Source: Bacteroidota bacterium
GTDB taxonomy: Bacteria; Bacteroidota; Bacteroidia; Bacteroidales; GCA-2748055
Reading direction: 5' to 3'
DNA length: 64,000 nt
Assembly: GCA_051746185.1 (NCBI GenBank)
Contig: JBNJEV010000001.1
Location: forward strand, 20,222-84,221
A program made the position numbers. Below, piece by piece: positions 12,001 through 18,000 of the stretch (the first letter of the stretch is position 1; every line of letters begins with the position of its first letter).

Positions 12001-15000
12001 AGCTTTAATTCTCAGGAACAGGTTGACGCCCAGCTCCTCCATCTCAACCTTCACATATTCTTCCCGTGCATCTGCCTCCAGTGCCATCCTCACCAGGTCA
12101 TTTTTGGAACGGTGGTTCAGGTACCAGTCGGATAATACCTCCATCAGTCTTTTCGTAGGATTGCTCGTGGAAAAATTCCCGATGATGTATTCTCCTTTCT
12201 CGGCCAGGTACCTGTAATACTTATTGACCATGTAGACAAAATGACGGTCCCTGAAATAATCGAAAAGACCCGCACTCCATATCAGGTCATACCAATGATA
12301 AGGTTTGAACCTGAGCACATTGATCCGGAAATAATCAATGGAACTGCTGAATTCCTTATTCTGCGAGCTGGCAAAATCAATGGCCTTCTGGTCGAAATCC
12401 ACAAGGTCAAAATGGATCCTGGAGCCGGGATTCTGTTCAAGGTACTCGTGTACGTCGGTGGCGGGTCCGCATCCAAGGATCAATATTTTGATTTCTTTAC
12501 GGCCGGTTTGTTCAAGCTCACCGCAACGTTTCAAAAAATATTCCTTCCGGTTGCGGACCGCATTTGCTCCGGCCTGATCCTGGAAAAAACGGTCCCAGTT
12601 GCTGTATCGCCGGTCCGGATTCACATACATACGGTAAATGTTATGAATGATCGAGAAGTCACCCGGATACCCGTAGGGCTTTACGAAACCATGACCTATC
12701 AGGGTATTCTCATTCAGCGAATCCCTGATGATTTCCCGGAATGCATCCATTTCCTCATCTTCCAGATTATTGACGATCGCCGTAAACTCCTTGTATTCAT
12801 TTGGTTCGGGTCCGCCCTTTTCAACAAGGGAGGTTAAAAATGTACGTTCCTCATCCGGGATCTGACCGGGAGTCAGAATAGGGTGCATCATGTCCATGAT
12901 TTTCGGTGTTACTTTGGTACATTCCAGAATTGTATACGCCTTTGGGCCCAATAGGTTTCAACATCGGCCCAGGTGCGGGCAGAACATGTTTAAATAACCG
13001 GGCAAAAGGGAAGTTGCTTGAATCTGATGATAAAAATTACTTTCTTTAACCCTCCTGATCATGAAATGAAAAAAGTATTCTCGGGTAAGGTATTGTTCAT
13101 TACTGGATTGTTGCTCGCCTTTGTGATTATTTTCCTGGGCAACAAAGCCGTACGGTGGACATCCACCGATGCATTCTGTGCGTTATGCCATATTCATCCC
13201 CATTCCACCACCACCTGGAAGCGTTCTACCCATTTTGACAACAAAAGAGGGATCCATGTGCACTGTGTGGAATGTCATCTCCCCCCCCATGGAGAAGGCT
13301 ACCTGTGGGAAAAAGCCAAAACCGGCATGCGGGATCTTTATGGCAAATTGTTCAAGGATCCTGAAAGCCTGAACTGGGAAGCCAAATCACAGATTGAGTA
13401 TGCAAAAAGACATGCTTACGAATCCTCCTGCATCGATTGCCATGAGAATAACTATCCCCTGGGCCTGAGTGAGGAAGGCCGGGAAGCACATCTTTACTAC
13501 GAAGAGCAGGAGGAAGATCTGCATTGTATCAACTGCCATATTACGGTGGGTCATTATGATCCGGACAGGATGCACGAACAGAATACCGCATTCGGGATCC
13601 GTGAAGAGGTGCAGGCGGAAGTGTATACCGAACCCGGAATCATCGACGGGTTCAGCAATTTTACGGAATATATCCCGGGGAGTGCTGTCAGTTTTGAGAT
13701 GGTGGCCATCCCCGGCGGATCATTCCCGATGGGCAGTCCCCCGAACGAGCCCTTCAGGGACCATGATGAGGGGCCTGTCAGGGAAGTATCGATTTCTCCT
13801 TTCTTTATGGCAAAGACGGAGGTCACCTGGGAGGAATATCTGGCTTTTTTCAAGCAGACGGGTGCCCAGGGGAAAACTGCGGATGCTTATCTCAATGTCA
13901 CACAGGGTGACGTGGATGCCATTTCGGGTCCCACTCCTCCATGGGGTGCACCTGACCAGGGCTGGGGAAAAGGCAGTTTGCCCGCCATTACCATGACCCA
14001 TCATGCAGCAGAGGTTTACTGCCAGTGGCTTTCCCGGCTAACAGGCAAATCTTACAGGTTGCCCACAGAAGCAGAATGGGAATATGCTGCCCGGGCGGGG
14101 ACCACCTCTCCCTACTTTTTCGAAGGTGATCCCAAAAAGTTTGTCAGGCATAACCTGATAGACCGGATCTTCGGCGTGGATACAGCTGTCATCAACACCT
14201 ACGTGAACTATGCTGAAAACAGCTTTGCCAGGACGGCTCCTCCGGAAAACATGAAAGAGAACCCGTTCGGACTGGTCAACACCCTGGGGAATGTGGCTGA
14301 ATTCTGCAGCGACTGGTATGCCGAAAATGCCTATGCACAATATCCTGACGGTTTGCTGGTTAATCCCACGGGGCCTGATTCGGGCCAGGAGCATGTGATC
14401 AGGGGCGGTTCCTACAGGGACGGGGCGGAAGATGTGAGATCTGCCTCCCGTACCCATACCCGCACAGAGCAATGGCTTAAAACCGACCCCCAGATCCCGA
14501 AAAGCATCTGGTGGTATTCAGATTGTTCATATGTGGGTTTCAGGGTAGTTTGTGAATATAATGAACCTGAAATACAGGAATAATGGTTAAATTGCTTTTT
14601 TTATCAAACAATACTAAAGAATATTGAATATGGGACTATCAGCCAAAACAAGTCGACGCAGATTCCTGGAGAATACGGCTGCCATCGGTGCCGTCGGTGC
14701 CGTCGGTGCAAGCCAGCTCATTCGTGCCTGCTCAACAGAAGGCAAAACAGGTGAGGTGGAGGAGCCGGTAATGCTGGATAAGGCTCCGGAAGGAGAACCG
14801 CTTAAAGCGGGTGTGGTAGGATGCGGGGGACGAGGTACCGGGGCTGCACTCAATTTCCTGAACGCCGGGCCTGATCTCAGTATCACGGCTGCTGCAGATG
14901 TTTTCCAGGACAAGATCGATGGATTCCGCAATAGACTGAAAGAGGAAAAAGGTGTTACACTGCAGGACTCCAATTGTTTTCTGGGATTTGATGCCTACAA

Positions 15001-18000
15001 GAGATTGCTGGAAACCGGTGTGGACGTGGTAATCCTGGCCACACCTCCCTATTTCAGGCCCGATCATTTTCTGGCCTCTGTGGAAGCACGCAAGCATGTA
15101 TTCATGGAAAAGCCCGTAGCTGTTGATCCGGTGGGGGCAAGATCGATCATGGCAGCCTCCAAACAGGCTGAAGCAGCAGGATTGAACGTGATCACCGGTA
15201 CCCAGCGGCGTCATCAAAGAAACTATAACAACGTACTGGCCCGGGTCAATGCAGGGATGATCGGCGAGATCGTGGCCTCCAATGTATACTGGAACCAGTC
15301 AAAACTCTGGCACAGGGAACAACAGCCGGCATGGACCGAGATGGAATACATGATCCGTGACTGGGTGAACTGGATCTGGCTTTCGGGCGATCATATTGTT
15401 GAACAGCACATCCATAACATCGATGTGAGCAACTGGTTCATCGGGAAGGCTCCCCTGGAAGCAGTGGGTGTAGGATCCCGGCAGCGAAGGGTCACTGGAA
15501 ATTGCTATGACAATTTCAGTGTGGACTTTGTCTACGAGAGAGATGTGCATATGCACAGCATGTGCAGACAGATCAACGATTGCGCGAACAGGGTTGGCGA
15601 GCATCTGAGAGGAACGAAAGGATACACCAACTGTGCCGATACCATCTGGGATCCCGAAGGTAATCCGCTCTATGTCTATGAAACCCCTGTGGATGAAAAT
15701 GGTGAGCCTCTTGTCAATAGCGGACTGGACCAGGAGCACGTGGACCTGGTGGCCGCCATCCGGAACGGGGAACAGATCGTGGAGGCCGAGGAGACCGCCC
15801 GGTCGAACATGACCGCCATCATGGGCCGGGAAGCAGCTTACACGGGAAAGAACATCACCTGGGAAGAAATGATGGGTTCCGGCCTGAAACTCGGTCCGGA
15901 AGGAGAGCTCAGCATGGGCCCGGTCGACATCGAGGCAGTAGTTCCCGTACCCGGTTCAGCACCTGAATAAGCACTCGACCGATCATTCAAACGCCGGCAT
16001 GCTTCCCGTGTCCGGTGCCAGCCGGTAGGCTTCCGAGCCGGCCAGCAGGAATGCCCCCAGGCCATAATCCTCGAAGTTGGCCGGTTTATCATAGGTAAAA
16101 GGCCACCCGTCCGAAGGCTGTTTTCCTGTGCTCTGCACATAACCCAGAAATCCATCCGGATGCAGGGCATCGTAAGCCATTCCGTTCCAGGCCTTCACCA
16201 GATGGGGCATGTAGGTGGCACTGTCCAGGACCCCGTTGTTGATCCCCCAGGCCAGGCCATAAGCAAAAAATGCGGTTCCGGAGGTCTCTTTGCTTCCGAA
16301 ATGCTCCGGGTCAACCAGGCTCGGATTCCAGAATCCGTCTTCCCTCTGTACAGCGATCAGGGCTTCTGCCATTTCTCTGAATGTGGTCAGGTATTCCTCA
16401 CGGTACTCCAGGGTATCGGGAACCACATCCAGGACCCTCACAAGCGCGGCAAATACCCATCCGTTCCCACGTGACCAGTAACAGTCCCTGCCATTGGGCG
16501 TGGTATAGGGAGGATCGAAATCCCCATCGCGATACCAAAGGTGGTCTTCCGTATTATAGAGGCCGTTGGCACCATGCTGGTTCCGGGTGAACATGTACAT
16601 TTCATGCATTTTCCTGAAATAGGCTGTATCCTGGTGAACCACACCCAGTTTCGCGTAAAGGGGCATGGCCATCTGGATGGCGTCGATCCATGACCAGTCG
16701 TCCACTTCATCACTCTCGACCCTGTAATCAATGCACCGGGTAATGGGTTCGATCCAGTGGTCATTGACGGGTTCCAGCTGATAAAGCTCCACATAGGTCT
16801 GCCCGCAACACTGGTGATCTGCATCCCTGGTCCGGAGTGATCCGTAGGTGGGCAGCCAGTCATGGCTCTGGCCCCATTCCACAGCATAGTTGAAGTACTC
16901 TTCTTCGGGATGAATGTAGTACAATGCCATCAGGCCCTCATAATATGCAGCACGTGTCCACAGATTGCTCGGGCGTACTTTATCGGTGACGATATCCTCT
17001 CCCGGATCGGGCCATTTGTCCATAAAATACCTGTTCGCCGTCACCATCTGTTTCATCATGGTATCCCTCGAAGGCAGGTGGGTAGACTGAGCATACATAC
17101 CGGCCACAAAGAACAGGCCGGTGAACATCAAAATGGTCCTGATGAAATATTGTTTGTTCATCCTGCAAAATACTTTTTCAGCTACTGTTAAGATACTTTT
17201 TACTGATTCAATTTCTCATACTGGATACCGGCCATGATAAAAGGTCCGGTAGCCTTCGGGTCGTTGTCCCGTCTCCTTTCGTTGATATAGTATTCATAAC
17301 TGCCGTCGCGGTAAGGATCCCCTCCCAGTCCGGCAACTGCACATACCGGAGAAATAACGATGGTCCCGTTCTCCCTTTTTGTCACCAGGTGTTCAATAAT
17401 CCCCTGATAAGCAGTTGCGGCAGCTTCTTCATATTTTTCCTTCTGCAGGTATCCTTTATTCACCCCCTTCAGCAGGAAGTAGGAGAACATGGAACTCGCC
17501 GAGCCCTCAATGTAGTTACCTTCACGGTCGCCCTGGTCGAGGACCTGGTACCACAGGCCGGTCTTTTCATCCTGCACCTTGAGGATGGCTTCAGCCATGC
17601 GGCTGGCAATGGCCACGATGGAATCCCTGCCCGGGTGATCTGAAGGAATGAAGTCCAGAACATCCACCAGGGCCATGCCATACCAGCCCATTCCCCTTCC
17701 CCAGAAGTTGGAGGATGTTCCGGTAACGGGATCGGCCCATTTCTGCTCTCTCGACTCATCCCATCCGTGGTACAGTAATCCGCTATCCGGATCCCTGGCC
17801 ACCTTTTCCATGTTGGTAAACCACCTGATCACAAAATCGAATGTTTCCGGATTGCCGTACTCCGCAGCATATTGCGCCAGGAAAGGGCCTCCCATGTACA
17901 GACCATCGAGCCACATCTGATGGGGGTATCTTTTTTTGTGCCAGTAGCCTCCTATTTCAGTCTGCGGATGATCTTCCAGCTGTTCACGGAGAGTTTCTGT

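Follow-up and report, generated by a model that had tools for sequence, protein, structure and literature searches.

The genome of a member of the Bacteroidales (GCA_051746185.1, contig JBNJEV010000001.1, positions 20,222 to 84,221, a stretch of 64,000 nucleotides hereafter called the window) contains a gene in which a membrane-anchored tetrahaem cytochrome of the NapC/NirT type is fused to a domain with the fold of the formylglycine-generating enzyme (FGE), and this gene is followed directly by one for a dehydrogenase of the Gfo/Idh/MocA family (here, the Gfo protein) that carries a twin-arginine translocation (Tat) signal. Comparative genomics gives what we regard as an even chance that the two products form a membrane-bound complex, a periplasmic glycoside or sugar 3-dehydrogenase that is wired through a flavin and haems to menaquinone. 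A more specific proposal is made with less assurance, and we offer it only tentatively: the FGE/SUMF1 fold would have taken on a new role, that of a redox adaptor which ApbE probably flavinylates and which re-oxidises the non-exchangeable NAD(P)H of Tat-exported glycoside 3-dehydrogenases, and fusion to a NapC/NirT module would have turned such a pair into a periplasmic glycoside:menaquinone oxidoreductase. The features of the locus are listed in Table 1.

The pairing of the fusion with the Gfo gene is not due to chance. A homolog search in a collection of 5.8 billion proteins yielded more than 7,900 homologs of the fusion, the best 120 of which are all about 505 amino acids long, contain both domains, and are 69-96% identical to the window protein; where the top homologs bear a name, it is 'SUMF1/EgtB/PvdO family nonheme iron enzyme' or 'sulfatase modifying factor 1'. 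Clustering at 50% identity leaves just a handful of full-length fusion representatives in the representative library (P0123, P0124, P0126, P0173, and P0128), and the carriers among named genomes are Bacteroidia metagenome-assembled genomes (MAGs), Sunxiuqinia, Labilibacter, Saccharicrinis, and a Rikenellaceae MAG. A census of 401 evenly sampled Bacteroidota genomes turned up the full fusion in three. Judged by these sequence comparisons, the fusion family is real, abundant, and phylogenetically narrow. At all 14 of the loci L001-L014, where identity is 53-80%, at most about 190 nt separate the fusion from the start of the Gfo ortholog downstream, and in G385 and G031 (about 49% identity) the ortholog likewise lies directly downstream. 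Gfo orthologs at these loci are 48-100% identical. The first-pass annotation, made from the window sequence, had staked its interpretation on the co-occurrence of the two genes, and this is what was found: including the window, Gfo directly follows the fusion at 17 of 17 loci.

The FGE-like part also exists by itself. A stand-alone secreted protein of 320-360 amino acids, 35-46% identical to fusion residues about 195-505, is encoded in 31 further genomes of the 401, and a Gfo ortholog (38-45% identity) adjoins its gene in 24 of 27 short loci and again in extended loci. These Gfo orthologs have the Tat signal and lack the lipobox cysteine. With membership of the Gfo subfamily set at E <= 1e-50, 55 of the 401 genomes hold it, and all 34 genomes positive for the FGE-like protein fall within those 55; several of the subfamily genomes outside the 34 have a more divergent FGE-like partner beside the Gfo gene (L069-L071). 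Overall, the adjacency is kept from 100% down to about 35% partner identity and across many families. Fusions form one clade in a maximum-likelihood tree (support 100/100), sister to the stand-alone proteins. Since the stand-alone homolog has the same Gfo subfamily as its neighbour, it is the FGE-like protein that has long been the partner, and the cytochrome was added in one clade. The mature stand-alone protein begins at a conserved F-x-x-Y-T-x-x-I-P-G-T, which aligns with N198FTEYIPGS in the window protein, and the fusion is therefore a NapC module plus a linker plus the whole partner protein.

A second association is with ApbE. In 14 of the 34 genomes, from at least seven families, the FGE-like/Gfo pair has an ApbE gene no more than 5 kb away, where 0.17 would be expected from ApbE copy number and genome size (binomial P about 6e-24, without correction for shared ancestry), and the arrangement recurs in at least ten GTDB families. 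The genes form a same-strand array in the order FGE-like, Gfo, ApbE, and TIM barrel at L062, L063, and L065, and the same array minus the TIM-barrel gene at L064; at L069 and L070, ApbE instead stands ahead of an FGE-like, Gfo, and TIM series, as it does at L071, where no TIM gene is adjacent. Finally, ApbE and YceI genes accompany the FGE-like gene at L047, from which a Gfo gene is absent. Because of this last locus, and because no conserved [ST]G[AS][ST] site was found in the Gfo orthologs, the FGE-like protein is the most likely target of ApbE. No such site is visible in the TIM-barrel sequence of the window either, and the idea of a flavinylation site on the Gfo or TIM protein was dropped.

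The motif flavinylated by ApbE is D-x-x-[S/T]-G-A-[S/T] (PMC12052999). A near-match, D284-A-I-S-G-P-T290, is present in the window protein, and the corresponding segment in the fusion clade reads D-x-x-[ST]-G-[PA]-T; Labilibacter, Saccharicrinis, the Rikenellaceae MAG, P0124, and P0126 have the exact canonical DAISGAT (the exact form being that of loci L010, L012, and L014 and of the representatives P0124 and P0126). The stand-alone proteins, including those beside ApbE, have D-A-[IV]-[TA]-R-P-[ST] and also T/S-R/L-P-S/T, the final T/S being the sole invariant position. True FGEs have DAVVPEAPWW at the same place, which makes the DAISGPT segment an old structural element. The source genome has one ApbE gene, located on a different contig; it also encodes several other multihaem cytochromes, so c-type cytochrome maturation operates. 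That a flavin belongs to the FGE-like/Gfo system is well supported by genomic context, and flavinylation of T290 in the fusion itself, as predicted from the motif, is plausible but unproven.

The third conserved member of the module is a Tat-exported, xylose-isomerase-like TIM-barrel enzyme, orthologs of which (49-77% identity) accompany the FGE-like/Gfo pair in many loci. Its relatives in the PDB are hydroxypyruvate/2-oxo-tetronate isomerase-like proteins, ketose 3-epimerases, and a 3-keto-D-glucoside 4-epimerase. The fusion locus in G385, L057, has genes for TIM (Tat) and a DUF1080 '3-keto-disaccharide hydrolase' ahead of the fusion, in that order, and Gfo (Tat) behind it; DUF1080 proteins act as 3-keto-sugar lyases/hydratases. 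The closest Gfo paralogs without an adjacent FGE-like gene are found in SusC/SusD loci with two DUF1080 genes. The source genome contains 12 DUF1080 / 3-keto-disaccharide hydrolase domains over the Pfam cut-off, all outside the window and some in tandem (C90, C16), together with three additional Tat-signal Gfo-family paralogs, which suggests a broad 3-keto-sugar toolkit. The first-pass annotation had suggested that the FGE domain may be an adaptor or catalytic unit; that it serves a periplasmic dehydrogenase with bound NAD as an adaptor or redox unit has good support in this genomic context, namely in the pairing, ApbE, the TIM barrel, and DUF1080. The accompanying idea of 'glycan-derived' electrons did not fare as well where it leaned on the neighbouring glycoside hydrolase (GH) genes of the GH105/GH88 type: they are not conserved, occurring among related loci only in L013 besides the window. 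They were dropped as members of the system and are probably outside the conserved module.

Turning to the fusion protein itself, its open reading frame (ORF 13018/13066-14583, +) has an alternative upstream TTG start at 13018. The anchor region is a helix at residues 5-31 in the AlphaFold2 (AF2) prediction. Pfam Cytochrom_NNT (PF03264) matches residues 5-167 with 96.5 bits (cut-off 24.1), and the four CxxCH motifs within this module are C38ALCH, C67VECH, C122IDCH, and C154INCH. The Cys and His residues of these motifs and five additional His of the haem module are invariant in 38 homologs. K83 and D90, likewise invariant across the 38, align with the K and D in the KAIAGARD segment of Desulfovibrio vulgaris NrfH (2j7a_C), and we take those NrfH residues, K82 and D89, to be part of its quinol site. 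The module nonetheless belongs to none of the characterised subfamilies as NCBIfam defines them, its scores being below the equivalog or subfamily cut-offs for NrfH (65.8 vs 134.2), TorC (64.4 vs 478.2), and NapC/NirT TIGR02161 (52 vs 310.6); its first haem motif is CxxCHxH, whereas the NrfH equivalent is CxxCHxM. The fusion is predicted to be a membrane-anchored tetrahaem protein of the NapC/NirT type with haems attached. A full-length AF2 model, in which the haem domain was unstructured and the mean predicted local confidence (pLDDT) was 58, was set aside. The ORF and the Pfam matches together bear out the original description of a transmembrane anchor, four CxxCH motifs, and a complete FGE-fold domain in one polypeptide.

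Pfam FGE-sulfatase (PF03781) matches fusion residues 211-466 with 151.5 bits (cut-off 23.3). In FGE the motif is GGS-x-x-C-x4-C, and by register the catalytic cysteines would correspond to D452 and V457. The first-pass annotation had said that both are missing, correctly so: there is not a single Cys between R446GGSY and C487, nor does any member of the fusion clade have these cysteines; alignments to FGE structures made with HMMER end at GGSY. A true FGE acting in sulfatase maturation was ruled out on these grounds and because a sulfatase neighbour is not conserved. The domain was modelled alone with a 36-sequence alignment of fusions and stand-alone proteins, giving a pLDDT of 86.4 and a predicted template modelling score (pTM) of 0.88; a low-confidence loop covers residues 270-286 and reaches the start of DAISGPT (284-290), the remainder of which also has a pLDDT below 60. 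When this model was searched with Foldseek, PvdO (5hha) was the top match (E 8e-20), followed by human and bacterial FGEs (the FGE matches having probability 1.00), TvpA, pFGE, ToxD, EgtB, and PorK. The nearest NCBIfam families of the C-terminal part are PvdO, GldK/PorK, and EgtB, all below cut-off; the best is the PvdO equivalog NF051459, with 112.3 bits (cut-off 500). The family has a signature of its own, D474PQIPKSIWW483, in which S480 is a second candidate site of modification or contact. Distant matches to the domain are dominated by giant proteins of 1,000-4,400 amino acids in which the FGE-sulfatase repeat occurs as many as 22 times (P0121, P0122, and many others).

The Gfo gene starts 46 nt after the fusion. 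No terminator-like site was found in this spacer, and co-transcription of the two genes is likely. Pfam scores of its product are 48.6 bits for GFO_IDH_MocA (PF01408) and 27.2 bits for the C3 domain (PF22725), and the G-x-G-x-R-G core of the Rossmann motif is kept in all Gfo orthologs. The Tat signal model TIGR01409 gives 17.6 bits (cut-off 16.7), and RRxF followed by an L-x-x-C lipobox Cys is conserved in 16 of 16 fusion-linked orthologs, which supports a Tat-exported lipoprotein, the lipidation being predicted. The annotation of a Tat-signal (SRRRFL), probably lipidated Gfo/Idh/MocA gene at this distance therefore stands, given TIGR01409, Pfam, and the conserved lipobox Cys. The protein is only distantly akin to solved Gfo structures: its best matches are inositol dehydrogenases, one of them at the top (E 4e-9), DgpA, and a glucuronide 3-dehydrogenase (E between 1e-9 and 1e-5).

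Table 1. Features of the window (positions are window coordinates).
Feature	Position	Strand	Remarks
NapC/NirT-FGE-like fusion gene	13066..14583	+	505 aa from ATG 13066; PF03264 and PF03781 above gathering cut-offs
Tetrahaem NapC/NirT module	13078..13566	+	Residues 5-167; PF03264 E 2e-27
N-terminal transmembrane anchor	13090..13146	+	Residues about 9-27; hydrophobic stretch KVLFITGLLLAFVIIFLGN in sequence
CxxCH motifs of fusion	13177-13191, 13264-13278, 13429-13443, 13525-13539	+	
Cys-less FGE-fold (PvdO-like) domain	13660..14565	+	Residues about 199-500; PF03781 E 4.5e-44
D284-A-I-S-G-P-T290, near-match to ApbE motif	13915..13935	+	Pro instead of Ala; loop low-confidence in model
R446GGSYRDGAEDVR458	14401..14439	+	Segment holding the two catalytic copper-binding Cys in true FGEs; without Cys here
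D474PQIPKSIWW483 family signature	14485..14514	+	Invariant in fusions, stand-alone proteins, and divergent members
Intergenic spacer	14584..14629	+	46 nt, fusion stop 14581-14583 to ATG 14630
Tat-exported, probably lipidated Gfo/Idh/MocA dehydrogenase	14630..15970	+	Rossmann motif GCGGRG
Signal and lipobox of Gfo protein	14630-14731	+	SRRRFL Tat motif; LIRAC, Cys34 = lipobox Cys
Two GH88/GH105-type unsaturated glycuronyl hydrolase genes	15983..18504	-	PF07470 E 1e-79 and 2e-115; between Gfo and TIM genes
Tat-exported xylose-isomerase-like TIM-barrel enzyme	19601..20533	-	PF01261 E 3.5e-27

The mechanism that we propose for the complex is as follows. The Gfo protein would be exported in the folded state with a tightly bound NAD(P) and be tethered to the membrane by its lipid anchor, where it would oxidise a sugar hydroxyl, most likely C3 of a glycoside, to yield a 3-keto sugar. 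This product could then be processed by the TIM-barrel enzyme and, in relatives, also by DUF1080 enzymes. Because the bound cofactor cannot exchange with the pool, the NAD(P)H would have to be re-oxidised in place, and the FGE-like domain, docking on the Gfo protein as a dedicated partner subunit, is the putative agent. It probably holds a covalent flavin mononucleotide (FMN) installed by ApbE, which would split the two electrons of the hydride into one-electron steps, and the four haems of the fused NapC/NirT module would carry the electrons to menaquinone in the membrane. Bacteroidota use menaquinones, menaquinone, at about -74 mV, lies energetically downhill of NAD(P)H, at about -320 mV, and cytochrome cM552 is a precedent for a quinone-reducing NapC/NirT protein.

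Each part of this system has known counterparts. With NrfH, CymA, NapC, and TorC (PF03264), the fusion shares a single transmembrane anchor, four c-haem motifs, a Pfam score above cut-off, and the Lys/Asp pair aligned with NrfH, and with TorC in particular, a tetrahaem module with a partner-specific C-terminal extension; it differs in falling below the cut-offs of the NrfH, TorC, and NapC equivalogs, in having an extension of FGE fold rather than a haem domain, and in the proposed flow towards quinone. PvdO is a periplasmic, Cys-less FGE-fold protein required for dihydropyoverdine oxidation. Like it, the fusion has an FGE fold that is predicted to be periplasmic and from which the catalytic Cys pair is missing; unlike PvdO and FGE, it has DAxSGPT and DPQIPKSxWW, Gfo and ApbE partners, and no pyoverdine cluster. 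LacABC-type glucoside 3-dehydrogenase and gluconate 2-dehydrogenase also couple periplasmic sugar oxidation to the respiratory chain through a cytochrome, but they are FAD-dependent flavoproteins of the GMC type with a soluble or separate cytochrome c subunit, whereas the window enzyme is of the NAD(P) type, with an FGE-fold accessory and a NapC/NirT module. In ThuAB, too, a Gfo-family dehydrogenase (ThuB) is associated with a non-homologous accessory protein (ThuA). The FGE-like proteins resemble the ApbE substrates (NqrC, RnfG, NosR, PplA, DUF2271, and DUF3570) in the co-operonic ApbE of many relatives, in a motif-like segment ending in an invariant Thr/Ser, and in a proposed extracytosolic redox role, but the canonical SGAT of those substrates is SGPT in the window and TRPT/S in the stand-alone proteins. 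All considered, the system would belong with the membrane-linked periplasmic sugar dehydrogenase complexes.

A further comparison is with the 3-keto-glycoside pathway, which comprises the TIM-barrel lyase BT2156/AL1, the DUF1080 protein BT2157/AL2, and the Tat-exported Gfo protein BT2158/AL3 (PMC8121099; bioRxiv 10.1101/2024.03.25.586180). The NAD bound to BT2158/AL3 gets stuck in the reduced state; a 'missing component' has been considered possible, with cytochromes merely a possibility (PMC8121099; bioRxiv 10.1101/2024.03.25.586180). The window and BT2158/AL3 have in common a Tat-exported Gfo/Idh/MocA protein with presumably tight NAD, a Tat-exported TIM barrel, DUF1080 (in relatives of the window locus), and the same problem of cofactor re-oxidation. 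They differ in that their sequences are remote from each other and that Bacteroides thetaiotaomicron has no FGE-like or cytochrome partner, whereas the window encodes both the partner and a quinone module. The analogy to a glycoside 3-dehydrogenase, which we treat as just that, rests on the neighbouring DUF1080 and TIM genes.

Several observations weigh against a flavin- and haem-wired glycoside:menaquinone oxidoreductase. NapC/NirT proteins usually oxidise quinol and do not reduce quinone. For the stand-alone partners, a route of their own to the membrane is not obvious; no consistent separate cytochrome was found beside stand-alone pairs, just sporadic PSCyt/DUF1501, cytochrome c, and YceI neighbours. 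In none of the three fusion genomes does an ApbE gene adjoin the pair. The window has Pro at a motif position where even a change of Ala to Val lowers flavinylation (PMC12052999), and the stand-alone proteins that are adjacent to ApbE carry T-R-P-T/S, which is off the motif at two core positions, so that the flavin-bearing residue, and even the protein that bears it, stays a candidate. The resemblance of the Gfo protein to the BT2158 family, with 21 bits for profile NF058561 (cut-off 750), is at the superfamily level. Furthermore, AL3/BT2158-type enzymes can recycle their cofactor by means of 3-keto sugars without a partner. From this last point follows a different account of the locus, in which the 3-keto-glycoside pathway is redox-neutral: the Gfo protein recycles its bound NAD via a 3-keto sugar, and the FGE-like/cytochrome protein only primes the enzyme, rescues it when stuck, or balances redox. 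According to the preprint of Nasseri et al. (bioRxiv 10.1101/2024.03.25.586180), 3-keto-glucosides recycle the cofactor in vitro and are proposed to do so in vivo. Both the TIM-barrel and DUF1080 enzymes of that pathway, which accompany the module, and the stand-alone FGE-like partners with no obvious membrane route are in keeping with such an account. A strictly co-inherited partner, a tetrahaem quinone module, and ApbE would be a heavy investment for mere rescue, however, and in B. thetaiotaomicron, the neutral pathway runs without any such partner; we consider this account unlikely, though it deserves to be taken seriously.

Electrons might also flow the other way. Proteins of the NapC/NirT family such as NrfH, CymA, and TorC usually oxidise quinol, the residues that we take to form the quinol site are conserved in the fusion, and AL3 is able to reduce erythrose and dehydroascorbate; the NapC/NirT module could thus oxidise menaquinol and pass electrons via the FGE-like domain to the Gfo protein, which would serve as a periplasmic terminal reductase of a carbonyl, e.g., a keto-sugar. 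At textbook values, though, electrons would have to move uphill from menaquinol (about -74 mV) to NAD(P)+ (about -320 mV), and the accompanying enzymes are catabolic 3-keto-sugar enzymes, and we think reverse flow quite improbable. We are barely less sceptical of the idea that catalysis resides in the FGE-like domain itself, and still find it improbable. The domain would then resemble PvdO and work in the periplasm as an oxidase or dehydrogenase whose substrate is a small molecule or a derivative of a sugar; the haems would take up its electrons, and Gfo would be a mere pathway neighbour. PvdO is its best match both by fold and in NCBIfam, the strictly conserved DPQIPKSxWW could form an active site, and at L047 the FGE-like gene occurs with ApbE without a Gfo gene; nevertheless, the pairing of the FGE-like protein with one Gfo subfamily is near-obligate, and PvdO is not known to have a defined cofactor or autonomous activity. 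Least of all do we expect the Gfo protein to work by itself as an NAD-dependent glycosidase like those of GH109 or GH4, regenerating its cofactor in each cycle and functionally unrelated to the fusion. Tat-exported glycosidases of the Gfo fold with bound NAD+ exist, GH109 among them, but there is no GH109 entry among the 24 PDB sequence matches of the Gfo protein (E <= 1e-3), for which reason a GH109-type glycosidase was judged unlikely, and conservation of the Gfo/FGE-like adjacency over the whole range of partner identity and in many families makes the wider idea highly improbable.

The surroundings of the module vary. Upstream of the fusion, a GH9 gene and a convergent GH20 beta-hexosaminidase gene are found both in the window (1980-7545) and in the 75%-identical locus L001 (1394-6395); between them and the fusion, the window has insertions of a DUF5009/HGSNAT-like acyltransferase, a hybrid histidine kinase, a response regulator, and an S-adenosylmethionine (SAM) methyltransferase. 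The last of these, a class I enzyme encoded at 11995-12951 (-), is divergent from the fusion, and its position is conserved in L013; homologs occur a few kb from the pair in L003 (downstream) and L005. At L005, the methyltransferase, fusion, Gfo, and TIM genes are all apparently frameshifted, as judged from split tblastn matches, which may be a MAG sequencing artefact. Between the second GH88/GH105 gene and the TIM gene of the window, there are three short frames in different phases (18394-18957, 18840-19136, and 19143-19502, all +); no Pfam match was obtained for any of them, and the region 18394-19502 looks like a frameshifted gene remnant. At L066 (2890-14746) and L067 (1995-13356), tandem pairs of the closest Gfo paralogs lie in SusC/SusD loci that also contain PIG-L-type deacetylase genes and two DUF1080 genes, and L066 has a family-type FGE-like gene (DPQIPKSLWW) 3 kb downstream of the paralogs, adjoining a sulfatase.

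Some stand-alone genes have other neighbours. At L047 (7917-15869), L046 (7866-16171), and L049 (2152-8903), the stand-alone FGE-like gene adjoins one for a YceI-like (polyisoprenoid-binding) protein and is also near genes for a PSCyt1-PSCyt2-PSD1 protein, a Tat DUF1501 protein, and a PSCyt1-LRR protein; L046, like L047, has no Gfo neighbour. The YceI, PSCyt, and DUF1501 proteins may be an alternative partner set or electron route. At L051 (8920-12628), the FGE-like/Gfo/ApbE set lies amid two more TIM-barrel genes, a cytoplasmic Gfo paralog, and a small Tat subunit of the Gluconate_2-dh3 type, and forms a larger sugar-oxidation island.

A full-text literature search turned up no account of this fusion, the pairing of FGE-like and Gfo proteins, or any flavinylation substrate with an FGE fold. 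FGE, NapC, and Gfo are absent from the main text of two ApbE surveys, and PF03781 is not in the supplement of one of them, in the parts that were available to us. The component classes are each known, namely NapC/NirT anchors with an extension, Tat-exported Gfo proteins with bound cofactor, and ApbE relays, but their combination appears to be undescribed; what appears to be new in particular is that a periplasmic dehydrogenase of the NAD type would have a protein of FGE fold as its dedicated redox partner.

Non-exchangeable NAD(P) is found in periplasmic dehydrogenases of the Gfo/Idh/MocA family, among them GFOR, BT2158/AL3, and many from Bacteroidota and Planctomycetota, and how it is re-oxidised in vivo is an acknowledged open problem. 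A partner that is genetically fixed, and that is fused to a quinone-reactive tetrahaem module in the window and shares operons with ApbE elsewhere, makes a concrete candidate for the 'missing component'. If our proposal is right, a function would be provided for the widespread annotation 'SUMF1/EgtB/PvdO family nonheme iron enzyme' in this FGE-like family, and the range of folds and motifs modified by ApbE would be extended by a new class of flavinylation substrate with a relaxed motif. Fusion to NapC/NirT would then turn an otherwise redox-neutral 3-keto-glycoside pathway into a respiratory one, an energy-conserving route from periplasmic glycoside oxidation to menaquinone by which electrons from sugars would enter the respiratory chain of anaerobic Bacteroidota at a new point.

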